64,000 bases of DNA from Pseudomonadales bacterium. Lineage in GTDB: Bacteria > Patescibacteriota > Microgenomatia > UBA1400 > PJMF01. The stretch covers positions 93,602 through 157,601 of the forward strand of contig JACKFY010000001.1 of assembly GCA_020632235.1 (NCBI GenBank). The letters run 5' to 3'. Shown here in pieces: positions 7,639-63,661 of this stretch. The notes under the pieces were generated by a model. That model searched no databases. It was not told the origin of the DNA and saw nothing but the letters and a program-made list of their open reading frames with translations. The position numbers and the translations under genes are program-made. Position 1 is the first letter of the stretch, and each line of letters begins with the position of its first letter.

Positions 7639-8514
7639 ATGAGTATCATTCCCAACCAACTTTTTTTATACTTACTCCTCGCCAGTGTGATCGCACTGGG
7701 TGGAGGATTGTTGTTTTTATACGTGCGAAAGCTCTCGACAGTGCTGGAGCGGTGGGGCGTGCCGTTTGCAGCTGGTACGATGATCATTACCGCCCTGGTT
7801 GGTTTGCTCCCCGAGGCAAATCACCTCTTGGGAGCCAGCAGTTTTGCGGTGTTTGCGGTAGCGTTTGTGTGCACGTTTGTCTTTGAGCAACTACTCACAC
7901 AACTACATCACCATGATCACAGTGAGCACTCGCAGGGTAGTACTTTGCAATCTTCAGTTCCTATGGTGTTGATTGGCGATACGATTCATAATTTGATTGA
8001 CGGAGTGGCTATTGCAACAGCGTATCTTGTGAATCCAGGATTGGCGTTTGCGACTGCTGTTTCAACGTTTTTACACGAGGTGCCACACGAGATCGGAGAC
8101 TTTAGTATTTTGCTCAAGGCTGGCTGGAAGCGCGGCAGTATTGTATTGATCAATATTGTTTCAGCACTCAGCACTCTTTTGGGTGGAGTTCTGGTGTATC
8201 AATTTTCTATTGGAGAGGTTGTTCAAGGGTATCTACTGGCCATAACCGCTGGTATTTTTTTCTACCTGGGTGCAATTGACTTTTTACCTCACGCATTTGA
8301 AAAGAAAGAAGGTGAGAACTGGCAGCAGTCACTGCGGGGGGTTATTCCTGTTTTGGCTGGGGCTGTTATTATGCTTGGCACACTTGGGTTGGTTCCCCAT
8401 AGTCACGACCACGGCTATGACCATGTTGAAGAGCGCATTCATGATGAGCATGAGGAGCCAGACCACGACGAGCCAGATGGCTTACACCATGATGAAGCTC
8501 AAGAAGGGCCCTAA
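7639..8514 (+). CDS. zupT: ZIP-family divalent metal (zinc) transporter with His/Asp-rich C-terminal tail
   Basis: Contains HNLIDGVAIATAY...HEVPHEIGDFSILLKAG, the ZIP signature. The start is moved to the ATG at 7639 (MSIIPNQLF...) because the track start at 7591 lies inside the palindrome. Confidence 0.8.
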   Translation: MSIIPNQLFLYLLLASVIALGGGLLFLYVRKLSTVLERWGVPFAAGTMIITALVGLLPEANHLLGASSFAVFAVAFVCTFVFEQLLTQLHHHDHSEHSQGSTLQSSVPMVLIGDTIHNLIDGVAIATAYLVNPGLAFATAVSTFLHEVPHEIGDFSILLKAGWKRGSIVLINIVSALSTLLGGVLVYQFSIGEVVQGYLLAITAGIFFYLGAIDFLPHAFEKKEGENWQQSLRGVIPVLAGAVIMLGTLGLVPHSHDHGYDHVEERIHDEHEEPDHDEPDGLHHDEAQEGP

Positions 8515-8610
8515 TTGTTAGCTCAATTATTGTTGAACAGCCAGAGCTTTCTTCAGGTGCTATTGCGACTGCTATCGTGCAGTACTTGGACAACCGAGAC
8601 CTTTTAGGTT

Positions 8611-9002
8611 GAGTACCGCACAGCCCCCAATAAGCCAGATTCTGTTTTGATAGCAATCTATCTAATGCCCGCGTCTTTATCACCGGCTGGCACGAGTGCC
8701 AACTCGCGAGTGTGTGCAATGCGGTGAAGGTCGTCGGTTGCAGCGGGGAGGATTACCCCTCTCACCACGAGTGGTGAGAGGCCTCCTCTCGATTTCTCGA
8801 GGATCAAAGGCGTTTCACCTCCCTCACACGAATGTGAGGGAAATCGTCACTGTTGCTCTAACTGTCGTCCGATTATGACATCGGACGCTCCACCTTTCGA
8901 TGGACACCCTACACTCTGCTGTCCGGACTTTCCTCCCCTCACTTTACTGTCAAGGTCTGGCCTGGCGCGAAAGTGAGGGGCTGCTATCTGTGAGCTGTGC
9001 GG
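8611..9002 (-). ncRNA. rnpB: RNase P RNA (bacterial type A)
   Basis: The minus strand reads GAGGGGAGGAAAGTCCGGACAGCAGAGTGTAGGGTG... (P4/CR-I), ...GGGAGGTGAAACGCC... (CR-II-like) and ...ACAGAATCTGGCTTATTGGGGGCTGTGC (CR-V/P4 3' strand). The P1 stem is GCACAG...CTGTGC. Track ORFs 8369..8719, 8696..8878 and 8847..9089 are spurious. Confidence 0.85.
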
Positions 9003-9102
9003 CAGGTGTAGTATACCAAGCGTAGCTACAATTTCGCTATGAAGGTTGATTTTATTCGTTTTAATGCCAGTGATGAGGTAGAGCTCCAAGGATGGTTGAG
9101 TA

Positions 9103-9660
9103 ATGAATCAGGGGTCACAGCAGTACTTCATATTCATGGTATCTCTGGCAATGGATATCAAAATCGTTTTCTTGATGCTCTCATTCAACCGGTACGCTAG
9201 TCGTAGCAATAATAATGTTGAAGTCATTACTGCTATTGGCAATACAGATAATGAAACATATAAACTCAATACTAATGTGAGAGGTGAAAAAGAGTTAACA
9301 ATTTATGCAGATGGTAAAAAAACACACATATATACATACACTTACGATCAGAAGGGTGAAATAAGCAATCTTTCCCTCACCATTGGCGAGGGGGCACACG
9401 TGGAAAATGTCCGTGATAATGACGCTCTCACTTCCCTCACCGTCGCCAAGGGAGCACGCGTGAGGAATATCTCCCACAACAAACACCTCACTTCCCTCAC
9501 CATTGGCGAGGGGGCACACGTGGAAAATGTCCGTGATAATGACGCTCTCACTTCCCTCACCATTGGCGAGGGGGCGAGTGTAAAGAGAATATATGACAAT
9601 AAGGTTCGCATCCCAATATTCGAGAGAATAAAATATTTGATGAGATATATTTTGAGTTAG
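9103..9660 (+). CDS. Small leucine-rich-repeat-like protein with about 20-aa tandem repeats (LTSLTIGEGAHVENVRDNDA)
   Basis: Four near-identical 60-bp DNA repeats at about 9360-9590 encode LTSLT-I/V-GEGA-x-V motifs. The start codon is uncertain. Confidence 0.4.
   Translation: MNQGSQQYFIFMVSLAMDIKIVFLMLSFNRYASRSNNNVEVITAIGNTDNETYKLNTNVRGEKELTIYADGKKTHIYTYTYDQKGEISNLSLTIGEGAHVENVRDNDALTSLTVAKGARVRNISHNKHLTSLTIGEGAHVENVRDNDALTSLTIGEGASVKRIYDNKVRIPIFERIKYLMRYILS
9360..9590 (+). repeat. Four 60-bp in-frame tandem repeats inside CDS 9103..9660
   Basis: CACTTCCCTCACCATTGGCGAGGGGGCACACGTGGAAAATGTCCGTGATAATGACGCTCT repeated with minor variation. Confidence 0.7.
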
Positions 9661-9688
9661 AATTAATGAGTGTAATAAAGGATACATA

Positions 9689-10009
9689 ATGCCAAAACAA
9701 TATCTATCGGTTTCTGACTTACGATCGCGTGGCGTTGCTGTGAGTGCTGCATACGAAAAGAAGTTTTGTGAAGGAGTCAATGCTGTTATTGCCAAAGCCG
9801 TAGAAGAAGAATTAAAAACCGAAATAGCAGTTAATCATGGAGAAGACATGCTTGCTCTGTATGCAGAGATGCTAAATACTTATGGTTTCTCTTCCAATCA
9901 CACTCAGCGATGGCTTGAAAGTACTATTCCAGCACTAGGCCAAATTGAAATTGAGTGGAGCGAAATAGCGTTGCATCATAGTTTGACAAAAACACCTCAG
10001 GTATCGTAG
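9689..10009 (+). CDS. hypothetical protein
   Basis: 106-aa ORF with no recognisable motif. Confidence 0.3.
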   Translation: MPKQYLSVSDLRSRGVAVSAAYEKKFCEGVNAVIAKAVEEELKTEIAVNHGEDMLALYAEMLNTYGFSSNHTQRWLESTIPALGQIEIEWSEIALHHSLTKTPQVS

Positions 10010-10252
10010 ATAGAGTACGATGCTGGAGGGTGATGGCCTAGAAATGACACAAGACTCAGAAAATTTTCTGCTATACTACTCCCAGTCACTTTGAAAGCAC
10101 TCGCGATGCTTTTTCTCGCTATAGAGAGTGGCGGTTGCCAAATACAACCCGAGTCACGAGCGAAACTCGTTGAAAGCTTAAAACAGCTTCATAAGTCTAG
10201 CGTTAGTAATGCGCTAGAAAAAAGGGTGGTACCGTTCCTCATACAAACATGA

Positions 10253-12151
10253 GTGAGCCCCTTTGCAGTACAGAGTGTATGTAAAGGATGTATGACCAGC
10301 CACTTACAACAACTTTTTTCCCAAGCTCTCGAAAATCTCGGGATTACTGATCATTCCGCTATTCAGTTGGAACACCCCGCAGACACAACTCACGGTGATT
10401 ACAGCACCAATGTAGCAATGCAGTTGTTTTCTCAGATCAAAAATAAGGTGGAGTACACCAACCCCAGGGAGCTAGCCCAAGGTATTGTGGAGCATGCCAG
10501 CAAGCTTCTTGCTGGTGATGATAGTTTTACTGGTCTCTCAGGCTGTATCAAAGAAATATCGGTAGCTGGACCAGGCTTTATCAATATTTCGTTTCGTGAT
10601 GCTTTTTTTGTGAGTCAGCTCTCTACTATTTTAGAAAAAGGCACTACGTTTGGAACAAACCAGAGTTTGAAGGGGAAAACAGTGGTGGTAGAGTACACCG
10701 ACCCCAACCCGTTTAAAGAATTTCACATAGGCCATCTGTACTCAAACATCGTGGGCGAGAGCATCGCTCGACTGTTTGAAAATTCTGGTGCGACAGTAGT
10801 GCGGGCAGATTTTTTTGGCGATGTAGGCATGCATGCTGCGAAGTCTTTGTGGGGATTACTTCAAAACTTCGCTGATGATGAAATAGATCTAGAAAATTTA
10901 GCGGCAATGCCACTCAAAGAGCGCATCGCGTATCTTGGAAAATCATACGCGCGCGGGGCAACCGCCTATAAAGAAGACGAGGCAGCAGCAGAGTCTATTA
11001 AGCAGCTCAACTTCTTGCTTTTTAAAGCGGCTCAAGAAATTGTCTTGCCGCAGTTTGACGAGCCGCCACAAGTTGATTTTGATCAGTTTATTACCAGCAG
11101 TGAGTGTGACTTTGAGAGCATCAAGCAGATCTACGCCATGACTCGAAAGTGGAGTCTTGATTACTTTGAAGAGATATATGCGCGCCTGGGCACCCGTTTT
11201 GACAACTACTACCCAGAAAGCAGAACGGGTGAAGAGGGCTACCAGATGGTGCTTGCTGGTTTGAAAAAAGGCATTTTTGAAACAGGTGAAAACGGGGCGA
11301 TCATTTTCCCTGGGGAAAAGTATGGGTTACACAACAGAGTGTTTATCAATGCGCTGGGGTTGCCCACCTACGAGACAAAAGACTTTGGACTAGCACTCCT
11401 CAAAGAGCGTGATATTGCTCCTGATTTCTCTATCATCGTGACGGGCAATGAGATCAATGAGTACTTTGCGGTTATTCTCAAATCTCTTGGCCAGGTTGCG
11501 CCTGCACTTGCCCAGTACACGACGCACATCGCGCACGGCATGGTGCGTCTGCCAGAGGGAAAAATGTCGTCCAGGACAGGTAAGATCTTTCGGGGCGAGT
11601 GGTTGCTAGACGAGGCAGTGGAGAGTGCGCATGACCTGCTTACCAGCCCAAGCGCTGACGTTCAACATACTTCAGATTTAGCCGAGCAGATAGGACAGGC
11701 TGCCATTAAGTTCGCCTTTCTCAAGCAAAATGTAGGAGGTGACATAGCTTTTGACTTTGCCGAGTCGGTCAGTTTTGAGGGCAACTCTGGGCCGTACGTG
11801 CAGTATGCTCATGCGCGTACCCAGTCCATCATACGCAAGTCTGGTGGTAGCATCCCGCAGATTTCTGGTGCTGCGTCACTCCTTCCAGCAGAGCGCTCGT
11901 TGGCCCAGCTCCTCTACCAGCTGCCCGAAGTGCTTCTGCAGGCAGCAGAGACGTACCAGCCTCACCTGGTAGCACAGTACCTGTTTGCTGTTGCCCAAGC
12001 GTTCAACAGTTTTTATGCGGCTCACTCAGTGTTGGGTGAGAATGTTACATCAGAGCAAAAACAACTTCGTCTCGCACTCACTATGGCTACGGGTGTTGTT
12101 TTGAAGAATGGCTTACTCGTACTTGGTATAGCAGCACCTGATAGAATGTAG
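10253..12151 (+). CDS. argS: Arginine--tRNA ligase
   Basis: HIGH motif (FHIGHLYSNIVGE). Conserved class-I core and anticodon-binding DALR C-terminus ending ...APDRM, followed by TAG stop. The start may be the downstream ATG (MTSHLQQ). Confidence 0.95.
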   Translation: MSPFAVQSVCKGCMTSHLQQLFSQALENLGITDHSAIQLEHPADTTHGDYSTNVAMQLFSQIKNKVEYTNPRELAQGIVEHASKLLAGDDSFTGLSGCIKEISVAGPGFINISFRDAFFVSQLSTILEKGTTFGTNQSLKGKTVVVEYTDPNPFKEFHIGHLYSNIVGESIARLFENSGATVVRADFFGDVGMHAAKSLWGLLQNFADDEIDLENLAAMPLKERIAYLGKSYARGATAYKEDEAAAESIKQLNFLLFKAAQEIVLPQFDEPPQVDFDQFITSSECDFESIKQIYAMTRKWSLDYFEEIYARLGTRFDNYYPESRTGEEGYQMVLAGLKKGIFETGENGAIIFPGEKYGLHNRVFINALGLPTYETKDFGLALLKERDIAPDFSIIVTGNEINEYFAVILKSLGQVAPALAQYTTHIAHGMVRLPEGKMSSRTGKIFRGEWLLDEAVESAHDLLTSPSADVQHTSDLAEQIGQAAIKFAFLKQNVGGDIAFDFAESVSFEGNSGPYVQYAHARTQSIIRKSGGSIPQISGAASLLPAERSLAQLLYQLPEVLLQAAETYQPHLVAQYLFAVAQAFNSFYAAHSVLGENVTSEQKQLRLALTMATGVVLKNGLLVLGIAAPDRM

Positions 12152-24579: not shown

Positions 24580-24666
24580 TGGCGGAAGCGGCGGGATTCG
24601 AACCCGCGAACCGAAGAACGGTCACGCTTTCCAAGCGTGTGCAATTGGCCACTATGCGACGCTTCC
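24580..24666 (-). tRNA. tRNA-Ser (anticodon GGA), type II with long variable arm
   Basis: Minus strand: GGAAGCGTCGCATAGTGGCCAATTGCACACGCTTGGAAAGCGTGACCGTTCTTCGGTTCGCGGGTTCGAATCCCGCCGCTTCCGCCA. The anticodon loop is TTGGAAA. CCA is encoded. Confidence 0.85.
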
Positions 24667-26217: not shown

Positions 26218-26306
26218 GGAAGCGTCGCATAGTGGCCAATTGCAACAGGTTGCTAACCTGTACCGGTTTTTCTGGTTCGCGGGTTCGAATCCCGCCGCTT
26301 CCGCCA
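26218..26306 (+). tRNA. tRNA-Ser (anticodon GCT), type II
   Basis: GGAAGCGTCGCATAGTGGCCAATTGCAACAGGTTGCTAACCTGTACCGGTTTTTCTGGTTCGCGGGTTCGAATCCCGCCGCTTCCGCCA. The acceptor and T arms are identical to the GGA isoacceptor. Confidence 0.85.
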
Positions 26307-53362: not shown

Positions 53363-53997
53363 CTACTCTTTCATTTGACTTATGTAGGCAAATAGCTCAC
53401 TGGCAATCATACCACCGATTAGTGGCGCAGTGATGTAGAGCACGATCAGACCAAAGTTATCAGCTAGGTTGGCAATATCTACGAGCGCTGGTGAGACACC
53501 AACAGCAGGGTTAAACGCACCACCAGAGAGCGCACCGACACTCAATGCTCCCACCAGGACAATGCCCCCAATAGCTAGGCCGTAGTATTGATTACCCACC
53601 ACCTGTTTTGGCACAGCAACATTAAGTACCACCCAAACGAGGGCAAAGGTAAAGAGCGCTTCAGCTAAGAATGGTAAGAACAGCGAAGTACCAGCAGGAG
53701 CAACTAAGAATGTGCCACTGCCTGCCATAAACACAGAAACCAGGATGCTAGCTACAATACCACCCAGCATTTGCGAGCTGACGTACTTCGTGAGTTCATC
53801 CCCCGAGAGCTTGCCTAGTCGCCAAATAGCGAGGCTGACCGCAGGGTTGAAGTGTCCGCCAGAAATGTAGGCACCTGCATAGATCATAATGCCAAGTACA
53901 GCGGCAATGGCAAGTGGGTCACCACTCAATCCAACCGTTAGAACCAAAAAGAATGTACCAAGAAGCTCGATGAGGTATTTTTTTCATATACCATCAT
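53363..53997 (-). CDS. Aquaporin/MIP-family channel, N-terminus frameshifted in an A7 tract immediately after the start codon
   Basis: Two NPA motifs (HFNPAV, AFNPAV). With one fewer A in ATG-AAAAAAA-TACCTC, the N-terminus reads MKKYLIELLGTFFLVLTVGLS, a canonical aquaporin N-terminus. Confidence 0.7.
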
Positions 53998-54039: not shown

Positions 54040-55323
54040 TTAGGCAAACACAGTAATGGCGTTATCTACCATGATATCGCTCTGGGTAATTTCTTTTGTG
54101 AGGTAAAGAGTGTCGAGTGAGCGGCAGCGACTCAGCGCCACGTACGTTTGGCCATGAGCAAACGCGCCTTCATCTAGGTCTATGACAACACTATCAAAGG
54201 TTTGGCCTTGTGACTTATGAATGGTGATGGCCCAGGCAAGTTTTATAGGTAGTTGGCGAAATCGACTCACAATTTCTTGGCTTACCGTGCCGCTTGTTGT
54301 GTCGTAGTGATAGCGAATGCTGTCCCAGCTGACTGGCTCTACTTCATACTCATCTCCATCAATTGCAACGATAACTTGATCTCGGTTTAGGTCAATAATC
54401 TCTGCCAGAGTTCCATTGACCCATCTACCGGCTGGGTCATTTTTAATGAGCATCACTTGTGCGCCCACTTTGAGCTTGAGTACTGCATCGGTAGGGAAGG
54501 CACTCATTTTTTTATCGCCCTTAATTGTTGCTTTGAAGGAGTACTCTTTTCCTGGTAGAGCTGCCAGCTTACTCTTATTGATGTACTCTGCTGTTTTGTT
54601 GCGCGCAGTGAGGGTGATCACCGAGTGATGCTCCGGCGGCTCACCCACTCGACTATTGAGTGTCTGGAGTGCTTCGTCCAAACTTCTATTCGTTCTGACT
54701 GCGTTGAGTGCCGAGATAAAACGAGCATCAGCTTGCCGAAAGTGAGTGGTGAGGATGATGACAGTAGGATTGAGTTCTTTCCAAGCATCTGCATGAAAGG
54801 AGAAGTGACCACCATAGGTGTCGGCAAAGTACTCTTCTAGCTCACTACTTGTTACTACTGGTGGTAGTTGGTGCATGTCGCCAAACATGACAACTTGCAG
54901 CCCTCCAAATGGCAGCGGGTTTTTTCGTGCTTTTTTTAGCAGGTAATCGATGGCTTCTAGTATGTCCACTCGCACCATAGAAATCTCATCGATAATCAAC
55001 ATATCAATGGCAGCCAGGATGTCTTTGGTTTTTTTTGTGAGTCTGAGAGTGGGAAGTACGTCTGGGGTAAGTGCGTTAAATGGCAGGCGGAAGAGTGAGT
55101 GGATGGTTTGTCCGCCTACGGTGAGTGCAGCAACGCCAGTCGGCGCAACTACAACAAAACGTTTATTGGTGGTGTGCCGGATGTACTGCAAGAGCGATGA
55201 CTTACCCGTCCCTGCCCGCCCTGTGATAAAAAATGAGTCGCTACTTTCTTCGATGGCACGTGCGGCGGCAGCCTGCTCTGGACTGAGCGTCAAATCATCT
55301 ATCTGTAGTGGAGCACCAATCAT
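54040..55323 (-). CDS. PIF1/RecD-like ATP-dependent DNA helicase (AAA_30 plus UvrD_C_2)
   Basis: Walker A GRAGTGKSS, motif II LIIDEISMV and a C-terminal RecD-like barrel. Confidence 0.8.
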   Translation of the reverse strand: MIGAPLQIDDLTLSPEQAAAARAIEESSDSFFITGRAGTGKSSLLQYIRHTTNKRFVVVAPTGVAALTVGGQTIHSLFRLPFNALTPDVLPTLRLTKKTKDILAAIDMLIIDEISMVRVDILEAIDYLLKKARKNPLPFGGLQVVMFGDMHQLPPVVTSSELEEYFADTYGGHFSFHADAWKELNPTVIILTTHFRQADARFISALNAVRTNRSLDEALQTLNSRVGEPPEHHSVITLTARNKTAEYINKSKLAALPGKEYSFKATIKGDKKMSAFPTDAVLKLKVGAQVMLIKNDPAGRWVNGTLAEIIDLNRDQVIVAIDGDEYEVEPVSWDSIRYHYDTTSGTVSQEIVSRFRQLPIKLAWAITIHKSQGQTFDSVVIDLDEGAFAHGQTYVALSRCRSLDTLYLTKEITQSDIMVDNAITVFA

Positions 55324-55357: not shown

Positions 55358-55792
55358 TTATTGTTTGAGCGAGCCGATGTTATACTGCGCAAGCGCTGCA
55401 TATGCTTCTGCACTATGGCTGCCCTCGTTTCTTGGTCTGTTGGCAAATAGGTTTTGGTCACTCACTCCACAACCTTGCAGAATCTCGGCACCACCAGGGT
55501 GGGTTCCATCAGCAACATACTCGGTGACATCATAAACATCGCCGTCAACCACAATCCAGCAGTCACTAGCGCTATTATGAGTTGCCACTTCTGCTGCAGT
55601 GAATGAATTGGTTGTTGTTTCTGTGGAGGGAGTAGTTGAGGCCTGCAAAGGCTCAATAATGACATCTGTTTGGGCTTCAGTTGAGACAGATTCTGTTGCT
55701 ACTTCTTGCTTAGGTCGAAGCACCATGTAACCAACTAGAACGGCAATCACTAAGAGTATGCCAATGATAAGAGGGCGGTGAGTAGAGTTCAT
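55358..55792 (-). CDS. Membrane-anchored cytochrome b5-like heme-binding domain protein
   Basis: HNSASDCWIVVDGDVYDVTEYVADGTHPGG cyt-b5 signature. N-terminal TM and a Thr/Ser/Glu-rich linker. Confidence 0.7.
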   Translation of the reverse strand: MNSTHRPLIIGILLVIAVLVGYMVLRPKQEVATESVSTEAQTDVIIEPLQASTTPSTETTTNSFTAAEVATHNSASDCWIVVDGDVYDVTEYVADGTHPGGAEILQGCGVSDQNLFANRPRNEGSHSAEAYAALAQYNIGSLKQ

Positions 55793-56415
55793 ACTATTTT
55801 CTTTCCCACAGTAGTGTGTTTATATACAAGTGATGCTGTCTCTGTGAGAGCACCCAGGCCGACCAAAATAGTTGAGAGTTCGGTTGGCGATTGTAAAAAA
55901 AGATGAAAAAAGAGGAGCCCGATCATAATATAGACCAGCTTGTGCAGTTTTGTCCAGTTTTTTTTAAGCACCTGTTTTGTCCAGTCGCTTGAAGTAAGAA
56001 AGAGCGGTAGTCCCAGCAGCAGCGTGAGGGTGCCAAAAAACTCAAACGGGCGAGTAGCAATGACGCTGCCAAATCCCAAGATTGTTGCGGGGAACACCTT
56101 TAATAAGAAGTAGTGGCATACACCCAGTAGGTACATTGAGATGCCCAGCTCTTTTCGAAATGTCTGTATAATTATCTGTGCGTCAAGAAAAATACCTTTG
56201 AGCTTAAATCTGCGAGAGATTCCTGGATAGATCACAACCAGAAGTAGTAGAGCAGAGAGCGTGCCCGCTTTATCTCCTGTTTCTGTCCAGTAGGGAGCAA
56301 AGCTTGGTTGCACTCCCAAAAAAATTATCACCACAATCATTATAGTCCAACCAATTCGAAAGAAATTGACGATGTTTGGTGCAGATTGGATGATTTGTTT
56401 AGTACCGTTGTGCAC
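55789..56415 (-). CDS. Ferric-reductase-like (YedZ/MsrQ-type) di-heme b transmembrane protein
   Basis: Six TM helices with conserved His pairs (CHYFLL..., LHKLVYIMIGLLFFH). Overlaps the cyt b5 gene by 4 nt. Confidence 0.55.
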   Translation of the reverse strand: MHNGTKQIIQSAPNIVNFFRIGWTIMIVVIIFLGVQPSFAPYWTETGDKAGTLSALLLLVVIYPGISRRFKLKGIFLDAQIIIQTFRKELGISMYLLGVCHYFLLKVFPATILGFGSVIATRPFEFFGTLTLLLGLPLFLTSSDWTKQVLKKNWTKLHKLVYIMIGLLFFHLFLQSPTELSTILVGLGALTETASLVYKHTTVGKKIV

Positions 56416-56449
56416 AGCCCATCAGTATAAAGATGGTGAGCGTTAAAGT

Positions 56450-56692
56450 CTAGACCTGTATGGCAGAGTACTCAAGTGACTCAATCACCGAGCGGATAGT
56501 TTTTGGAGAGGTTTTCTCTTCATCATACACAACGGTAGTGAGCGCCTTTGCGTATGATGTATCGGCTGATATGACTCCGGGAATTTCCTCCAGTTCAGCG
56601 GTAATATTCATACTACAGCTGGCGCAGTGCATGCCATCAATCTTAAACACGACGGTTGTCCCTTGCGGTGTTTTTTTAAAGATGCCAAACAT
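56450..56692 (-). CDS. copZ: Heavy-metal-associated (HMA) copper chaperone
   Basis: MHCASCSMNI MxCxxC motif in a ferredoxin-like fold, 80 aa. Confidence 0.8.
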   Translation of the reverse strand: MFGIFKKTPQGTTVVFKIDGMHCASCSMNITAELEEIPGVISADTSYAKALTTVVYDEEKTSPKTIRSVIESLEYSAIQV

Positions 56693-56707
56693 ACGGTTCC
56701 TTTCTTG

Positions 56708-57826
56708 TTAGGTAACTTCTAATGTGCCGGTGTACATACCCATCGAGCAGGTGTAGGTGTATTTTCCTGGTTTCATAGGTGTGAAAGCAAATGTTTGAGT
56801 GTCGGTAGCCTCCAAGAATGTGTTGATGTCAAATTCTTTGAGGATAAACGCCAGCGCGCAGGTGTAGGTATTGTTGCTTTGCAAGGTCAGCTCTACTGGA
56901 GTGCCAGCTTGCACTTTTACATATTGAGGCGAGTAGCCTTGATTAAGAATATGGATGGTGACGTGCTGCACGCCATCTACGACTTTAGCCATAGGCGCGC
57001 TGGGAGTGCTTGCAAATCGTTCTGATGAGAAAAAGTAGGTCACAGGCTCTGCTACTTTTTGCAACGTGATGGGGGAGTTGGCCACAATAAGCACACCATT
57101 GACGCTATACACAGCCATCGCGATCAATGCGTAGGCAGTAACTTTAGAAAATGTTGTGTACCAGCCTTCACTTAGCTTTGCCGTTGCTACACCTATAATG
57201 GCAAAGAGCGGCATAGTGCCTAGCACAAACGAAAACATAATCAGACCTCCGTATGCGGGGTTACCTGTGTTAATAGCGAGCACCTCCATAGCTTGGGTGA
57301 CACCACAGGGAATAAAGATAGTCAAAAATCCGAGCACTACTGGAGCAAATAATGCTTTGCTCTTACTTGAGTTTCTCACCATTTTTTGAGTGAACTTTGG
57401 TGGCTGGAATGCGACAAAACGAAAGAGAGGGTGTGCGTCTAGCAAGTTCATGGCGGTAGCAAACATAAACAACGCGGTAAAGACCTGAAATGCGAGTCTG
57501 ACCCCCAAGCTCAAGGTGATAGCTGATCCAAGAGCCCCTAGTAAAAATCCAAGAATAGTGTGGGAAACCAACTTTGCACCCAAAAACATCCCTACGGGCA
57601 ACCAGTCCATTTGATCAAATGATTGAAGAGAAAAATTGCTATCTTGCAACTTTTTTAGGTATTTTTTTTTATTTTTTTCTGTCTTAAGTTGTTTTTTTTC
57701 AACAATAGCATCGTGCTCCTGCTCTTTGCCATTGGCCACGACACTTGCGAGCAGCCCACCCTGCATCGCCAGACACGACAAGCCACCAGTCGTTAGCCCT
57801 GTGAGAAAAATGACGAATAAATCCAT
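56708..57826 (-). CDS. CcdA/DsbD-family transmembrane thiol-disulfide transporter fused to a C-terminal cupredoxin-like domain
   Basis: The N-terminal GGLSCLAMQGG plus 6-8 TM helices is CcdA-like. The C-terminal about 100 aa beta domain (...GKYTYTCSMGMYTGTLEV) resembles cupredoxin_1-type domains. Confidence 0.55.
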   Translation of the reverse strand: MDLFVIFLTGLTTGGLSCLAMQGGLLASVVANGKEQEHDAIVEKKQLKTEKNKKKYLKKLQDSNFSLQSFDQMDWLPVGMFLGAKLVSHTILGFLLGALGSAITLSLGVRLAFQVFTALFMFATAMNLLDAHPLFRFVAFQPPKFTQKMVRNSSKSKALFAPVVLGFLTIFIPCGVTQAMEVLAINTGNPAYGGLIMFSFVLGTMPLFAIIGVATAKLSEGWYTTFSKVTAYALIAMAVYSVNGVLIVANSPITLQKVAEPVTYFFSSERFASTPSAPMAKVVDGVQHVTIHILNQGYSPQYVKVQAGTPVELTLQSNNTYTCALAFILKEFDINTFLEATDTQTFAFTPMKPGKYTYTCSMGMYTGTLEVT

Positions 57827-57839
57827 AGCAGCATCCTTT

Positions 57840-60062
57840 TTATACTAGTTTTTTGGTACGCAGCCTGAGAGCGTTACCTACTACGCTGACGCTTGAAAAT
57901 GCCATGGCGGCCCCTGCCATGATGGGGTTAAGAATTATGCCAGCCACAGGGTAGAGTATGCCCATCCCCACAGGAATAAGTATGACATTGTAGGCAAACG
58001 CCCAAAATAAATTTTGCTTGATATTTGTCATAGTTTTTTTGGACAGGTCGAGAGCTGTGGGAACTAAACTAATATCACTTCTTAGTAATGTTATCCCAGC
58101 TGACTCAATTGCTACGTCAGTACCTCCGCCCATAGCAATACTGACATCAGCTGCCGCTAGGGCCGGAGCATCATTAATGCCGTCGCCCACCATAGCAACA
58201 CCCCCATACTTTTTTCTTAATTGGCGGATGAAGTGTTCTTTATCAGCAGGCAATACTTCTGAGCGAACTTCTTTGATACCAAGTTGCTTTGCAATACTCT
58301 CGGCAGTGTGTTTATTATCTCCAGTTACCATGACGGGCGTGATTCTCATTTTTTGTAAGGCAGAGATAACTGATCTTGAGGATTCTTTTACGCTATCTGC
58401 AATACCATACACAGCTGCGTGCGTGCCGTTGATTGCTACATGCACAACTGACTGAGCCTGTTTTTGCCAGTCAGAGGCTGCTGCCACTAGTTCTGGATCA
58501 ACGTGTATTTTTTGTGAAGTAAGAAAGCTGAGAGTGCCAATCAGAACGCTACCTGTACCGACAGTAGCAGAAACACCTCTGCCAGCATGGTCTTTAAATT
58601 GAGCTATCTCTTGCACTTTTTTGTTTTTGGTGGAAGTAAATGCAACAAGTGCTTGAGCCAAAGGGTGATGAGAGAGTGATTCAACAGCCAAGACCGCAGC
58701 ATCAACATCTTTTTTACTACCATTATCTGCGTACTCGCCTTGTTTGACTTCTGGCTTGCCGTCTGTGAGCGTGCCTGTTTTGTCAAACGCAATTACCCTC
58801 ACTTTACCAGCAATTTCTAGTGCTTGGGCGTCTTTGATTAAGATGCCTGACTGAGCTCCACGTCCAATACCCACCATGAGCGAGGTGGGAGTAGCCAAAC
58901 CCAACGCACACGGACACGCGATAATAAGCACATTAATCATACTGACTAGTGCTGTGAGAAATCTTGGTTCTGGTCCAAAAAACCACCAAGCAACAAAGGT
59001 AATTAGCGAAAGTATAATCACTGTGGGAACAAAGTACGACGCGATAGTATCAACAAGCGCCTGAATGGGCGGTCGAGAACCTTGTGCTTGTTGCACAAGT
59101 GTGATGATAGTGGCAAGCATGGTGTCACTACCCACTTTTGTTGCTTTCATTTGAATAGCGCCTGATTGATTGATGGTTGCACCGATCACATCATCACCCA
59201 CTTGTTTGCTCACCGGAATGCTTTCACCCGTGACCATGCTTTCATCAATTGCCGATGAACCTTTCGTAATAACTCCATCAACAGGTACTTTTTTGCCTGG
59301 TTTTATAAGCAACACGTCACCTACTTGCACCTCCTCAAGAGGAATTTGTTTCCAATCTGCGCCCGTTTTAATCCAAGCAGTTGTAGCTTGTAGTCCTAAC
59401 AATTCTTTGATGGCAGATGACGTTTTTGCTTTCGCCCTTATTTCCAAAAACTTTCCCAAGAGAATAAAGGTGATGATGGCTGCTGATGCCTCAAAGTAGA
59501 CATGTGTTGCTACCCCCTGACTGGTCAACCAGTCTTGAAAGAGCACCACCAACGTAGAGAAAAAATAGGCAGCAGATGTCCCGAGTGCTACGAGTGTGTC
59601 CATGTTAGCCGAGAAATTTTTAAGCCCCGACCAAGCACCTTGGTAAAATCGTTTTCCCGCCCAAAACTGCACGGGTGTGGCAAGCGCCCACTGCAACCAA
59701 GGGTTGTGGAGTGCCTCTGGTGCTCCGGGCAACATGCTTGCTATGAGAGTGAGCGCAAGCACTCCACTTACCATGAGTTTTTTCTTGAGATCTGCCAGCT
59801 CTGCTACTCGTTCTTTTTCTGCAATATCGGTGCTGGCAGCCGCACCAATATGTGCAGTGTACCCAATGTCTGATACGGCTTGGGTGATACCAGCAGACTC
59901 TATCTTTGTTGCATCAAAATCAACAGTTGCTTGCTGGTTCGCATAGTTGACGGTTGCTTGGGTTACTCCATCTGTTTTTCTGAGCTTTCGTTGAATGTTA
60001 GTAGCACAGCTGGCGCAGTGCATACCAGAAACATGGAATGAGATAGACTGCTGTTTAGACAT
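57840..60062 (-). CDS. copA: Copper-translocating P1B-type ATPase
   Basis: N-terminal HMA (GMHCASCATNI), CPC (ACPCALGLATP), DKTGT (AFDKTGTLT), HP and GDGINDAP. The start is set at ATG 60062 (MSKQQSISF), overlapping the regulator stop by 8 nt. Confidence 0.95.
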   Translation of the reverse strand: MSKQQSISFHVSGMHCASCATNIQRKLRKTDGVTQATVNYANQQATVDFDATKIESAGITQAVSDIGYTAHIGAAASTDIAEKERVAELADLKKKLMVSGVLALTLIASMLPGAPEALHNPWLQWALATPVQFWAGKRFYQGAWSGLKNFSANMDTLVALGTSAAYFFSTLVVLFQDWLTSQGVATHVYFEASAAIITFILLGKFLEIRAKAKTSSAIKELLGLQATTAWIKTGADWKQIPLEEVQVGDVLLIKPGKKVPVDGVITKGSSAIDESMVTGESIPVSKQVGDDVIGATINQSGAIQMKATKVGSDTMLATIITLVQQAQGSRPPIQALVDTIASYFVPTVIILSLITFVAWWFFGPEPRFLTALVSMINVLIIACPCALGLATPTSLMVGIGRGAQSGILIKDAQALEIAGKVRVIAFDKTGTLTDGKPEVKQGEYADNGSKKDVDAAVLAVESLSHHPLAQALVAFTSTKNKKVQEIAQFKDHAGRGVSATVGTGSVLIGTLSFLTSQKIHVDPELVAAASDWQKQAQSVVHVAINGTHAAVYGIADSVKESSRSVISALQKMRITPVMVTGDNKHTAESIAKQLGIKEVRSEVLPADKEHFIRQLRKKYGGVAMVGDGINDAPALAAADVSIAMGGGTDVAIESAGITLLRSDISLVPTALDLSKKTMTNIKQNLFWAFAYNVILIPVGMGILYPVAGIILNPIMAGAAMAFSSVSVVGNALRLRTKKLV

Positions 60063-60534
60063 ACTTGGCAGGCTCTTTTTTGAATATTGATACACAGCCA
60101 CTCGCACAAAAGTAGTAGTCTTGTGCATCGTGTAATACGTGAAAGCCAGCGGTTTTTGGCGAAACCCGCATACCACATACGGGGTCTTGGACGATCGGCA
60201 CGAGTTCGCTCATACGCAGGAGAAGCTCACCTGCCAGAGGCGTATCTTTGTGTTTCACGATGAGTACTTGGCGCAAAAGGTCAGAAGCCTCCATAATACG
60301 TATGTCGGCAACTTTGTAGTACACCTGCTTGCCTTCACGCCTAGTGATCACAACCCCTGCATCACGCAAGATCATTAAATGTTGACTGACGTTTGCCTGG
60401 GGCAGATCAAGCATGGTGTGAATGTCAGAGACGGGTAGTTCTTGGCCGCGCAGTAGATGGATGATCTCCAGGCGCCTCGGGTGAGCTAAGGCCTTGAGCA
60501 AGTCCGCGTGCAGTTGAAACATTTCTGAATACAT
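60055..60534 (-). CDS. ArsR/SmtB-family transcriptional regulator with C-terminal TRASH/YHS metal-binding domain
   Basis: wHTH (LKALAHPRRLEIIHLL...VSQHLMILRDAGVV) plus the C-terminal CGMRVSP...YYFCASGC. Confidence 0.8.
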   Translation of the reverse strand: MYSEMFQLHADLLKALAHPRRLEIIHLLRGQELPVSDIHTMLDLPQANVSQHLMILRDAGVVITRREGKQVYYKVADIRIMEASDLLRQVLIVKHKDTPLAGELLLRMSELVPIVQDPVCGMRVSPKTAGFHVLHDAQDYYFCASGCVSIFKKEPAKYV

Positions 60535-60554
60535 ATTCGTATATTAGAATATGT
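60531..60554. promoter_or_regulatory. Inverted repeat ACATATTC-N8-GAATATGT overlapping the regulator start codon (candidate ArsR operator)
   Basis: Read directly from the sequence. 8-bp perfect arms. Confidence 0.5.
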
Positions 60555-60730
60555 TTGTGGGTGTGTCAACAAGCAACTTACCCAAACCTATGCCACACTC
60601 CCTCTGACACAACTTCGCTATTTAATCCGTCTGCAATGAGTGATGAGTCATCATCGAGCGCATTACTGATAGTTGCATTGAAGAATCCGGCCGAGGTGAG
60701 GAAGAGCTTCATTTTTGCATTGCAACAACC

Positions 60731-61348: not shown

Positions 61349-61735
61349 TCACAGTAATTCCTGGTTCATAAATAGAATCTTTTTTTCTACTGAAGTTTGA
61401 GATGTTTGTATTGACGCCATGGCAATGGCATACTTTGCCACTTGTTCTTCAGAAAAAGGGAGCGTCTTCATATTTAGGGCATAAAATACATCTAGAACTA
61501 TAACTGCAGTTCTTTTATTTCCATCAATAAGTTTATGACCAACACAAATGCGAACAAAGTATTCCGCAGCTATCTGATGAAATGATAAACCTATGGTTGT
61601 TGCTTTGAAATTGATCAACTCTATCAAGCCTACCAACTCTTTGAGTTGCTTCTTTGTTGGCTGGGGAAAGGGTTCAGGGATTTGTTCGAGTAAACTCTTC
61701 AAGTTTTTTGAGTTCAGCAGAATAATCGATGTCAA
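61349..61735 (-). CDS. Doc/Fic-fold toxin-like protein
   Basis: HKLIDGNKRTA matches the Doc HxFx(D/N)GNKR motif. A possible small upstream antitoxin ORF lies at 61674..61910. Confidence 0.5.
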   Translation of the reverse strand: MTSIILLNSKNLKSLLEQIPEPFPQPTKKQLKELVGLIELINFKATTIGLSFHQIAAEYFVRICVGHKLIDGNKRTAVIVLDVFYALNMKTLPFSEEQVAKYAIAMASIQTSQTSVEKKILFMNQELL

Positions 61736-61924: not shown

Positions 61925-62494
61925 CTTGGCGTATTTTATTCTGCGTAGATGGTCACATACTCTCCCTCATTGAGCACAATAATTGGCGTATTCTTATCAA
62001 GAAGTTCGAGTTTCCTTTGTTTTTTTCTTCAATGTTCCAATGACAGAGTGTTTGAATGGGTAGTAGCCCAAGCCCTTGGTGTTTTGTGTCAGAATCTTGG
62101 CAATCAAAAGATAAAACATAGTTTTTTGATGCTAAAAATGCACCCATAGAGCTGCCAACGTACACTTTTCCAGCAAGCTTTTCTTTGAGAAAAGAGAGGC
62201 TTTTGTAGTATGGTTCAAGAAGTTCGGCTTCTCCGCCAGCCACATAGAGCACATCATAATCATCAATGTTGGAAAGTAAATCAGCTACATCTTCAAGAAC
62301 ATGAAACACCACTTGTTTGGCTGTGTTGCTTTGAATTTTGGTCGTGTCTCTGTGGGTGAGTCTTTGCCATTCTTTTTTCTCTCGAGCCCAGTAGCATAAA
62401 AGTATCTTGACCTTGTCTTTTTCAACCAGCTGTGTGAATTGAGAAAAAAACTGAGTGTTTCCTGGTAGATCTTTACCTGTTTCGCCACCGTGTA
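61925..62494 (-). pseudogene. Peptidase S51 (PepE-like) gene. The N-terminus is interrupted by IS3 copy C and the C-terminus is frameshifted in an A7 tract.
   Basis: The track ORF 61953..62312 continues upstream in frame (...KDKVKILLCYWAREKKEWQRL...) up to the IS3 terminus at 62495. The alternative frame after GAAG-AAAAAAA-C gives a PepE-like C-terminus (...KKQRKLELLDKNTPIIVLNEGEYVTIYAE). Confidence 0.5.
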
Positions 62495-62557: not shown

Positions 62558-62881
62558 GTGGCAGGAATTTCTAAAGATATTAAGGCCGAAATCATAGCCA
62601 AGGTAAAGGCAGGGCAAAAAGTGGCGGATTTAGCCAAGGCGTATGGAATTAGCACTAAAACCATCTATAACTGGCTGCGAGGTCAAGTAAAAGAGCAGGT
62701 GTCTTGGCGGGAATACAAACGGGTAATGAAGGAAAACCAACAACTTAAGCAAATACTTGGAGTTCTCACACTCGAACTAGAGAAGTTAAAAAAAAGAACA
62801 GAAACTAGTACATTACTTTTGGAAGCACTGCCACATCTGGATAAAACTCTCTTGGCGGATGCTCTTGGTATTTCTAGGTAG
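62558..62881 (+). CDS. IS3 transposase OrfA (copy C)
   Basis: Identical to 1052..1375. Confidence 0.85.
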   Translation: MAGISKDIKAEIIAKVKAGQKVADLAKAYGISTKTIYNWLRGQVKEQVSWREYKRVMKENQQLKQILGVLTLELEKLKKRTETSTLLLEALPHLDKTLLADALGISR

Positions 62882-63661
62882 TGGTTGTACAAAACAGATT
62901 TTATTCAGGTAGAAAAAGACAAGCAGTTAAAGCAACAAATTGAGGAGGTGTAGAGTTCTCACCAGAGCAAAGCCAGTTATGGCTACCGCAGGTTAGCAAT
63001 TGAACTAGGAGTTGGTAAGAAGCGAATTCGCAGATGTATGAAGAAATATGGCTTGAGGCCATACAAAAGAAAAGCCAGATGGCGAAAAAGAAGAGATGAA
63101 CAAAGAAAGCCAGTAGCTTTTGCAAACGAGATTAAAAACCAGTGTCCACTAGTACCCAACCACACTTGGGCTGGAGATTTTACATACTTGCCATTTAAGG
63201 GCAAGTTTATCTACCTAGCTACTTTCATGGATATTTTTACCAGAGAGATAGTGGCTTGGCAAATATCCGATAGACATGACAAAACATTGGTTATGCAAGC
63301 CTTTTTAGATGGCTTAGTTAACCGAGACTTCCAGAAACCAATATACATCCACTCTGACCAAGGAGCAGAATATTGTTCCCAAGATTACACTGACTTAGTG
63401 AAGAATTTTGGGGTTACAATTTCCATGAGTACCAAGGCTTCTCCCTGGGAAAATGGTTACCAAGAATCCTTTTACAACAACTTTAAAACTGACTTAGGCC
63501 TTGAGTTTGACCGCTTCGACGATGAAGGGCACTTTCTGGAAGCAATACACCACACCCTTTAGAGCTACAACCATGAAAGAATTCACTCTGCCTTGAAAAT
63601 GCCACCCTCCAGATTCCATGCCAAGTATTTACAATCCGTGTCTACGAAAAGGGGCGCTTGA
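62882..63661 (+). CDS. IS3 transposase OrfB (copy C), in frame with OrfA and with the same in-frame TAG codons
   Basis: Identical to 1376..2155. Confidence 0.6.

Follow-up and report, generated by a model that had tools for sequence, protein, structure and literature searches.

The window considered here is the whole 64,000-nucleotide (nt) stretch of contig JACKFY010000001.1, and the element of interest within it is a copper operon on the minus strand at positions 55358-60554 (Table 1). Labels on identical and near-identical proteins point to a bacterium of the candidate phyla radiation (CPR; Patescibacteria) as the source. Its six genes encode an ArsR-TRASH regulator, the copper pump CopA, a protein in which a DsbD_2 membrane domain is joined to a cupredoxin (hereafter the fusion), a small HMA protein, a YedZ-like membrane protein and a membrane-anchored cytochrome b5. 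An earlier note on this DNA had described a copper-handling operon of six co-directional genes, with 8-nt and 4-nt overlaps and a PIF1 helicase gene downstream, and this description holds in each of these respects. Direct reading of the sequence places the 8-nt overlap (ATGTCTAA) between the regulator stop and the copA start, and the 4-nt overlap (ATGA) between the YedZ-like and cytochrome b5 genes. The seven minus-strand open reading frames (ORFs), namely the six operon genes and PIF1, carry Pfam domains that all score above gathering cut-offs.

Tight co-directional packing is weak evidence for an operon in this genome, because the same minus-strand run continues beyond the six genes through PIF1 and an aquaporin gene. 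No convincing terminator or promoter was found inside the operon, where consensus matches occur at chance frequency.

Table 1. Positions of the copper locus features in the 64,000-nt window
Feature	Position	Strand	Signature
Candidate operator	60531..60554	-	Perfect inverted repeat ACATATTC-N8-GAATATGT; overlaps the -10 element and the regulator ATG
Candidate promoter	60541..60569	-	TTGACA (60569-60564), 17-nt spacer, TAATAT (60546-60541)
ArsR-TRASH regulator, 159 aa	60055..60534	-	HTH_5 + YHS
CopA, 740 aa	57840..60062	-	HMA + E1-E2_ATPase + Hydrolase
Fusion ORF	56708..57826	-	DsbD_2 + Cupredoxin_1
Fusion, membrane part, aa 1-250	57077..57826	-	DsbD_2 (PF13386), six transmembrane helices
Fusion, cupredoxin part, aa 273-372 + stop	56708..57010	-	CupA-type, PF13473
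Small CopZ-like HMA protein, 80 aa	56450..56692	-	PF00403; GMHCASC
YedZ/MsrQ-like membrane protein, 208 aa (GTG start)	55789..56415	-	Ferric_reduct (PF01794)
Membrane-anchored cytochrome b5, 144 aa	55358..55792	-	PF00173
PIF1 helicase	54040..55323	-	PIF1 domain
aa, amino acids.

A four-gene core and its regulator

Related loci were collected by a pattern-based scan with the fusion alignment as query, restricted to a single genome for each species; it returned 576 confirmed relatives of the fusion, and 80 of these loci were kept for comparison. Neighboring genes were counted in the 80 loci with tblastn and jackhmmer, and the denominators below give the assessable loci. The conserved unit consists of four genes, which encode the ArsR-TRASH regulator, CopA, the DsbD_2-cupredoxin fusion and the small HMA protein. 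An HMA gene lies directly downstream of the fusion at 75 of 78 loci, copA directly upstream of it at 66 of 73, and an ArsR-YHS regulator gene upstream of copA at 37 of 59. PIF1 is near the module at none of the 80 loci, and what follows the HMA gene otherwise varies from locus to locus. The nearest relative, L001, has proteins 59-82% identical to those of the window, with regulator, CopA and fusion at 77-82%. Behind its HMA gene, at 8372-10278, it encodes a 149-aa lipoprotein with a plastocyanin/azurin-type copper site and, with a 4-nt gene overlap, a 486-aa multicopper oxidase. There, an oxidative pair of copper accessory proteins fills the slot that the heme genes occupy in the window. At four loci, the gene directly after the HMA gene encodes a membrane-anchored DsbA-like protein with a thioredoxin fold.

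The fusion family is large, with at least 576 matches in the genome collection and more than 5,900 protein clusters. Beyond CPR bacteria, full-length homologues are found on plasmids, where they are annotated as “sulfite exporter TauE/SafE family protein”. The fusion gene is followed by a small HMA gene on plasmids of Candidatus Chlorohelix, Mycolicibacterium aubagnense (in the order ATPase-fusion-HMA), Deinococcus sp. QL22 and Tsukamurella. The plasmid of Tsukamurella tyrosinosolvens (L092:3360-10421) encodes, in order, a P-type ATPase, the fusion, the HMA protein, merA and a multicopper oxidase; the fusion and HMA pair stands there in the place expected for merT/merP. On a Streptomyces plasmid, the small gene after the fusion is annotated only as “cation transporter”.

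The regulator is an ArsR/SmtB winged-helix protein (PF01022, 51.5 bits; NF033788, 90.1 bits against a cut-off of 55) with a C-terminal YHS/TRASH domain (PF04945, 42.8 bits against a cut-off of 30.3), in agreement with the earlier assignment. Its TRASH motif, C120-X22-C143-X3-C147, fits the pattern C-X19-22-C-X3-C, and 35 orthologues conserve the motifs DPVC and FCxxGC, which hold the three TRASH cysteines, at 95% or more. The palindrome ACATATTC-N8-GAATATGT at 60554..60531 spans the regulator ATG (60534) and is the sole perfect match in the window, for which the chance expectation with up to three mismatches is 0.31. Its core, ATATTC-N8-GAATAT, occurs in exactly one copy, at the regulator start, in 39 of the 80 related loci, and this conservation strengthens the case for an operator that had been proposed from the window alone. 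The best promoter-like site of the region, TTGACA-17-TAATAT, has 10 of 12 matches, and in the aligned upstream regions most related loci keep TTGACA together with an A/T-rich -10 element inside the palindrome spacer.

The regulator ATG follows the -10 element by 7 nt and has no Shine-Dalgarno sequence before it; with this spacing, the regulator mRNA is probably leaderless. A similar geometry, with the ATG about 7 nt past the -10 element, is seen in most of the 39 related loci and suggests leaderless translation of the regulator across CPR lineages. An operator placed over the -10 element and start codon of its own gene would imply autorepression by promoter occlusion. In the scheme that we propose, the ArsR-TRASH repressor would bind ATATTC-N8-GAATAT at this position, and binding of Cu(I) to the TRASH motif would release it from the DNA, derepressing a probably leaderless polycistronic transcript. 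There is an archaeal precedent for the sensing step, where the helix-turn-helix (HTH)-TRASH protein CopR senses copper via its TRASH domain (PMC7830388).

CopA scores 597.5 bits with TIGR01511 (cut-off 397), and its translation contains the motifs CPC, DKTGT, AYN (the YN motif) and MAFSS (MxxSS), as well as CASC in a single N-terminal HMA domain. By the established P1B-1 specificity signature of CPC, YN and MxxSS, the protein is classed as a P1B-1 ATPase that exports Cu(I)/Ag(I). The biological start codon is ATG 60062, where the ORF list had used GTG 60176. The small HMA protein (PF00403, 60.9 bits) has no signal peptide and would therefore be on the cytoplasmic side, where it is proposed to pass Cu(I) to CopA for export. 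It stays below the cut-offs of the MerP model (40 bits against 92.6) and the MerTP fusion model (59 bits against 180). The HMA proteins of Paceibacteria-type loci have in common an N-terminal stretch, M-F-x-(I/F)-F-K-K-K, before the ferredoxin-like fold, and those of Microgenomates-type loci are without it; the stretch could be a docking or membrane-association peptide.

The DsbD_2-cupredoxin fusion

The cupredoxin domain of the fusion (PF13473, 52.6 bits) is closest to the copper-binding cupredoxins of Streptococcus pneumoniae. With the single sequence, phmmer finds the metal-binding domain (MBD) of CopA (4F2F) at E 1e-7 and CupA (4F2E/2MRY) at E 4e-5; with the family profile, the E-values fall to 3e-14 and 5e-14, respectively. 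The Cys and Cys-x-Met-x-Met ligands align residue for residue with those of CupA and the CopA MBD. In the window protein these are Cys323 (codon 56860-56858), Cys360 (56749-56747), Met362 and Met364, each invariant in all 78 sequences, down to 40% identity, in which residue conservation and loop charges were evaluated. An AlphaFold2 model of the fusion has a mean predicted local distance difference test (pLDDT) value of 83 and a predicted template modeling score (pTM) of 0.73, and Foldseek superposes the modelled cupredoxin on CupA (4F2E) with a template modeling score (TM-score) of 0.88 and a root-mean-square deviation (rmsd) of 1.3 Å. The sequence and the model together identify the domain as carrying a CupA-type binuclear Cu(I) site (Cys323/Cys360 with Met362/Met364), which may act as a Cu(I) chaperone or as a cysteine-based reductant. 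The earlier note had called this protein a CcdA-cupredoxin fusion; the C-terminal domain of 56708-57826 does model as a cupredoxin and has a Cys/Met copper site, and the CcdA half of the name is reduced to a family of the same clan (PF13386).

Other copper centers were considered for this domain. The ligand positions hold no His, and on this ground both a type 1 blue copper electron-transfer center (His-Cys-His-Met) and a CuA-like or nitrosocyanin-like center were rejected. CupA is also matched far better than nitrosocyanin, CuA or AcoP.

CupA-type cupredoxin domains were found in CPR bacteria, Actinomycetota, Deinococcota, Chloroflexota, Cyanobacteriota and Bacteroidota, and those with Cys…CGMxM ligands are common outside streptococci. 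Plasmid beta of Nostoc sp. PCC 7120 (L094:4431-5342) encodes a tandem two-domain form directly after a P-type ATPase, and Deinococcus peraridilitoris (L095:3250-3630) a 126-aa N-anchored form between an ATPase and TlpA. Hymenobacter (L093:990-1367) encodes, beside a nos (N2O reductase) cluster, a 125-aa match to the cupredoxin of the fusion under the name “cupredoxin domain-containing protein”, and in some actinobacterial ATPases (H24, H25, H28) a CupA-type cupredoxin serves as the metal-binding domain.

The membrane part scores 88 bits with PF13386 (DsbD_2), which belongs to the same Pfam clan as CcdA, and the AlphaFold2 model gives it six long helices. Cys18 in the first transmembrane helix (TM1; codon 57775-57773) and Pro173-Cys174 in TM4 (Cys codon 57307-57305) are invariant in all 78 sequences. 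Gln22, Met180 and His132-Pro133 are further invariant soft or polar residues near these cysteines. The three loops predicted to lie inside carry on average 5.2, 5.9 and 3.0 lysines plus arginines, and the N-terminus and the two outside loops carry 0-0.1. The positive-inside rule is thus unusually clear, and it predicts that the N-terminus and the cupredoxin are outside the cell.

A reversed topology is very unlikely by the same figures. In such an arrangement, the cupredoxin would be a cytoplasmic, CupA-like tethered chaperone that feeds CopA, and DsbD_2 would be a transporter of unrelated function or simply a polytopic anchor. Both canonical CupA and the cupredoxin MBDs of P-type ATPases (hits H24, H25 and H28) do appear to be cytoplasmic, and stand-alone CupA-like proteins (Deinococcus, Nostoc) carry basic residues behind an N-terminal anchor. 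However, the basic loops of the fusion lie on the side of the membrane opposite the cupredoxin, the MBD of the window CopA is an HMA domain for which a matching HMA chaperone is already encoded, and a cytoplasmic cupredoxin would leave the invariant transmembrane cysteines without explanation.

With the cupredoxin outside, the fusion fits a trans-membrane cysteine relay that links the cytoplasm, Cys18/Cys174 and Cys323/Cys360, and either electrons or metal ions may pass along it. We tentatively favor electrons, at somewhat less than even odds. The CupA-type binuclear Cu(I) site of the fusion would be held at the external side of the membrane and capture there copper exported by CopA, or copper entering from outside. 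Cys323/Cys360 could reduce Cu(II) to Cu(I) at their own expense, as CupA does in vitro, and Cys18/Cys174 would relay electrons from the cytoplasm, with thioredoxin as the presumed donor, to restore these cysteines and keep the external site reduced. The protein would then be a one-polypeptide counterpart of the steps from DsbD-beta to gamma, from ScsB to ScsC/D, or from CcdA to TlpA to CoxB/ScoI.

Several observations are consistent with electron transfer. In DsbD, the C-terminal redox domain follows the transmembrane core, and the TM1/TM4 cysteine pattern of the fusion, with an external Cys-pair domain behind it, mirrors the beta-gamma arrangement. TlpA keeps the Cys ligands reduced in ScoI and in the cupredoxin-fold CuA domain of CoxB (PMC6669012), and ScsB, itself induced by copper, acts on the Cu(I)-binding proteins ScsC and ScsD (bioRxiv 10.64898/2026.05.22.727170). 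Thiol-redox genes recur beside the module, as in the four loci with a DsbA-like gene, and in D. peraridilitoris TlpA is encoded beside a separate DsbD_2 gene and the CupA-like gene.

Other findings count against electron transfer. Pro-Cys is present in TM4 only, where P173-C174 aligns with the TM4 Pro-Cys of CcdA; the TM1 cysteine stands in the context LSCLA (S17-C18), without Pro. PF02683 (CcdA) is not reported on the membrane part even at E<=10, the fusion family profile matches none of the solved CcdA/DsbD chains, and hhalign against three annotated CcdA sequences is insignificant (probability 0.35%, E 0.17), although its local alignment pairs the Pro-Cys motifs of the two proteins. With all three comparisons insignificant, the sequence makes the membrane domain CcdA-like by clan-level resemblance and not by membership. 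The superfamily to which it belongs consists mostly of metal-ion transporters (PMC4608589). The predicted outward cupredoxin, for which the positive-inside rule is the sole basis, inverts the position of canonical and stand-alone CupA, which appear cytoplasmic. Finally, the fusion and HMA genes occur without an adjacent ATPase gene in Chlorohelix, Deinococcus QL22, L023 and L025, and directly upstream of merA in Tsukamurella; these contexts suit the movement of metal better than that of electrons.

It is therefore possible, and nearly as likely as electron transfer, that the fusion is a thiolate metal relay like MerP-MerT-NmerA, in which Cu(I) or another soft metal would move among the external site, Cys18/Cys174 and the HMA protein. 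Outward movement could make the fusion a second exporter, fed by the chaperone, or serve the metallation of exported cuproproteins; inward movement could scavenge metal for handling in the cytoplasm, as mercury resistance systems do. No gene is tied to the fusion more tightly than the HMA gene, which is kept even where no ATPase adjoins, and merB/MerR lie near the pair in Deinococcus QL22, as merA does in Tsukamurella. A DsbD_2 domain that is not CcdA proper, from a superfamily mostly of metal transporters, would be at home in such a role, and the invariant Gln22, Met180 and His132-Pro133 lie close to its cysteines. Nevertheless, an importer co-regulated with an exporter would set up a futile copper cycle, no member of the membrane subfamily of the fusion is a known metal transporter, and both the DsbD-like placing of the cysteines and the recurrent thiol-redox neighbors argue for electrons. 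MerT gave no match to the fusion.

What is observed directly is the identity of the domains and the conservation of ligands, gene order and operator. We propose, with a probability of about 0.5, that the fusion is an undescribed, self-contained transmembrane device found in hundreds of monoderm and CPR species beside a small HMA gene. It would be either a cupric reductase and Cu(I) trap at the cell surface, working through cysteines and driven by thioredoxin, or a three-station thiolate relay that takes Cu(I) itself through the membrane to or from an HMA chaperone. In CPR bacteria, it would be under the control of ArsR-TRASH copper sensors that form a new class in bacteria. A literature search for a DsbD_2-cupredoxin fusion found no description in the library that was searched.

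The two heme genes and the surroundings of the locus

The YedZ-like protein matches PF01794 with 33.7 bits (cut-off 28) and falls well short of the MsrQ model NF003831 (39.7 bits against 130). Gene callers start it at ATG 56340 (183 aa); GTG 56415 restores the full first transmembrane helix and fits the N-termini of the relatives. The family comprises 449 relatives (∼450 clusters), which are stand-alone proteins of ∼200 aa with three conserved histidines. In the window protein these are H101, H158 and H171, one in TM3 and two in TM5, 13 residues apart, an arrangement that follows the YedZ-type pattern. The earlier description as a ferric-reductase-type di-heme protein is right about the Ferric_reduct domain; the di-heme part is not established by three conserved histidines.

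The cytochrome b5 domain (PF00173, 49.4 bits against a cut-off of 23.7) is preceded by an N-terminal transmembrane helix, in keeping with the membrane-anchored protein that had been predicted. Its axial histidines in HPGG and GSHS align with those of 1CXY and 3NER. The best match in the PDB is 1CXY (E 5e-12), a bacterial cytochrome b5 (Ectothiorhodospira vacuolata cytochrome b558), in which both cysteines of the window protein align to cysteines. Cytochrome b558 is a soluble periplasmic protein with its two cysteines in a disulfide. Given the match to 1CXY and the lipoprotein signal peptides carried by the closest homologues, the heme domain is probably external.

In the related loci, the two genes are all but absent from the module. 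A YedZ-like gene is near it at one of the 80 loci (L015, upstream of the regulator) and a cytochrome b5 gene at one other (L022, on the opposite strand and ∼1.5 kb off), so that the two are never found together. Word-indexed protein searches returned only the self-match for the YedZ-like protein and 13 matches for the cytochrome b5, whose contigs are mostly too short to show neighborhoods (one, L087, looks eukaryotic); tblastn of both proteins against plasmids gave nothing. A DNA-pattern search (P-x-F-x-TSNDWS) returned 33 loci, of which nine encode YedZ-like relatives. Of these nine metagenomic genes, none has copper genes nearby and five directly follow enolase; in four of the five cases, an LCP-like gene lies at the opposite flank.

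Some of these neighborhoods pair a ferric reductase domain (FRD) protein with a cytochrome b5. On two ∼250-kb contigs from related samples (L106:120-997 and L108:6432-7471), a YedZ-like and a cytochrome b5 gene stand tail-to-tail, ∼30 nt apart, directly after enolase; three other loci have the order enolase, YedZ-like gene, LytR_cpsA_psr gene. In L086 (1926-3728), a gene for a 433-aa NOX-like protein (Ferric_reduct, FAD_binding_8 and NAD_binding_1) lies 7 nt upstream of that for a 164-aa exported cytochrome b5 homologue, a possible case of electron export from NAD(P)H to an external b5. Since the heme domain of the window protein is probably external and pairs of this kind recur in L086 and L106/L108, the YedZ-like and cytochrome b5 genes probably form a separate two-gene unit that moves electrons outward.

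The earlier note had gone further and suggested an extracytoplasmic chain for Cu(II) reduction and Cu(I) delivery. Spelled out for all six genes, the YedZ-like protein would carry electrons through the membrane to the external cytochrome b5, this would reduce Cu(II), and the cupredoxin would capture the resulting Cu(I). We consider this chain unlikely. The heme genes do begin 34 nt past the HMA gene on the same strand, and no terminator was found between them, so read-through into the pair is possible, as it likewise is into PIF1. The external b5 domain and the recurring pairs with FRD-type proteins would fit such a chain, as would the cupric reductase activity of eukaryotic FRD, STEAP and Dcytb proteins (PMC7558416), the other copper redox pair in the slot after the HMA gene of L001, and the YedZ-like gene just upstream of the regulator in L015. 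Against this, each heme gene is missing near the module in 79 of 80 relatives and both are never present, and the relatives of the YedZ-like gene lie elsewhere, between enolase and an LCP gene. A palindrome scan of the window found no operator copy upstream of the heme pair, and the candidate promoter before the YedZ-like gene (TAGACT-17-TATACT, 56452-56424) has 9 of 12 matches, which is chance level. Reduction of external Cu(II) would moreover raise toxicity, where L001 has its plastocyanin-like protein and an oxidase instead, and the logic of adjacency would equally enlist PIF1 and the aquaporin.

The neighborhood survey thus divides the six genes. The fusion is linked to copA and the HMA gene over 80 genomes, and the heme genes are unrelated to copA elsewhere, as their single occurrences and enolase/LCP contexts indicate. 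A copper-specific role of the heme pair is possible but unsupported, its copper link being its position in one genome; a heme-based copper reductase chain hangs on that one gene order. The two genes are best treated as unlinked to the core, or at most as lineage-specific accessories.

The surroundings of the locus are not shared, and flanking synteny is kept in no relative. Base composition gives no hint of recent insertion for the heme genes, PIF1 or the cop genes. Downstream, the aquaporin (MIP) ORF at 53363-53947 (-) covers Pfam model positions 47-219 only, its TTG start being probably too far downstream or its N-terminus truncated. Upstream lie a Fic/DOC-family ORF (61349-61735, -), a truncated Peptidase_S51 fragment (61953-62312, -) and an IS3-like transposase in two ORFs, one with the HTH (62558-62881, +) and one with the rve integrase core (63038-63562, +), which places a mobile element ∼2 kb from the cop promoter. 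Elsewhere, the window contains an RNase P RNA (bacterial class A, 116 bits; 8615-8999, -) and tRNA genes at 24583-24666 (-) and 26218-26303 (+). Many records of metagenome-assembled genomes with a CPR-type cop locus are titled “uncultured Pseudomonadales” or “Gammaproteobacteria”, and the proteins of the window itself carry two names, “Pseudomonadales bacterium” and “Candidatus Woesebacteria”. These conflicting taxon names look like taxonomy-mapping errors in public records.

Significance and comparison with known systems

The most valuable part of the locus is the four-gene core, above all the DsbD_2-cupredoxin fusion with its HMA partner. Little is understood of how bacteria that have no outer membrane handle copper at the external side of their cytoplasmic membrane. 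Here a large family joins a CupA-type site, apparently outward, to a two-cysteine membrane domain and travels with CopA and, still more closely, with a small HMA partner. As such, the fusion is a concrete candidate for a surface device that handles Cu(I) or reduces Cu(II). The S1 cysteines of CupA reduce Cu(II) in vitro, and their re-reduction is said to come from an unknown source (PMC5646241). If the fusion is a cupric reductase and Cu(I) trap, it would supply the missing reductant that has been proposed for CupA. The CupA-type site is also widespread, as opposed to the few streptococcal species to which a 2020 review restricts CupA. For uncultivated CPR bacteria, the ArsR-TRASH protein and ATATTC-N8-GAATAT offer a ready regulator and operator pair.

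The closest structural relatives of the cupredoxin are S. pneumoniae CupA and the N-terminal cupredoxin of its CopA (4F2E, 2MRY and 4F2F), which have the same fold (Foldseek TM-score 0.86-0.88, rmsd 1.3-1.4 Å). Like the fusion, CupA is encoded in a cop operon beside CopA, and reviews describe it as trapping copper at the cytoplasmic membrane after entry into the cell. The two differ in architecture, as CupA has a single N-terminal anchor and the window cupredoxin is C-terminal to a six-helix two-cysteine domain and predicted to face outward. They differ also in their partners: the CopA that works with CupA has a cupredoxin domain, whereas CopA and the soluble chaperone of the window are both HMA-type.

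The membrane half invites comparison with DsbD, CcdA and ScsB and with the CcdA-TlpA-ScoI/CoxB pathway. These share with it the Pfam clan, one seemingly essential cysteine each in TM1 and TM4 (with Pro-Cys in TM4) and a predicted N-out/C-out topology, and the gamma domain of DsbD stands outside after the transmembrane core, as does the Cys-pair domain of the fusion. A copper link is common to ScsB, through copper stress, and to the path from TlpA to CoxB, in which the Cys ligands of a cupredoxin-fold site are kept reduced. In contrast to DsbD and CcdA, the fusion matches PF13386 and not PF02683, and its partner domain is a cupredoxin rather than a thioredoxin fold. MerT/MerP, with NmerA, resembles the module in that a small HMA protein is encoded next to a membrane protein whose cysteines are paired within the membrane. 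On two plasmids the fusion lies near merA or merB. The module lacks MerT homology, its HMA protein has no signal peptide and would be cytoplasmic, its external station is a cupredoxin instead of an HMA domain, and the accompanying pump is a Cu(I) exporter.

The YedZ-like protein shares the Ferric_reduct domain, a length of ∼200 aa and six transmembrane helices with MsrQ (YedZ), and is related through this domain to the eukaryotic Fre/STEAP/NOX proteins. Unlike MsrQ, it scores below the equivalog cut-off and has no adjacent MsrP, and its partner is a membrane-anchored cytochrome b5; in L086, the partner of the cytochrome b5 is a full NOX-like FRD-FAD-NAD protein. The window cytochrome b5 differs from cytochrome b558 (1CXY) in being tethered by an N-terminal transmembrane helix and a Ser/Thr-rich linker.

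The closest characterized relative of the regulator is archaeal CopR (Sulfolobus, Pyrococcus, Thermococcus), which likewise combines an HTH with a C-terminal TRASH domain, is encoded with copA, and has a (semi-)palindromic site at the cop promoter comparable to the palindrome of the window. The HTH is Lrp-like in CopR and of ArsR/SmtB type here, and the hosts are archaeal and bacterial, respectively. The window regulator gene, unlike that of CopR, is co-directional with copA and overlaps it. With an operator lying over the -10 element and start codon of the regulator gene itself, the arrangement suggests simple autorepression, in contrast to the octameric activator/repressor mechanism proposed for Pyrococcus CopR.

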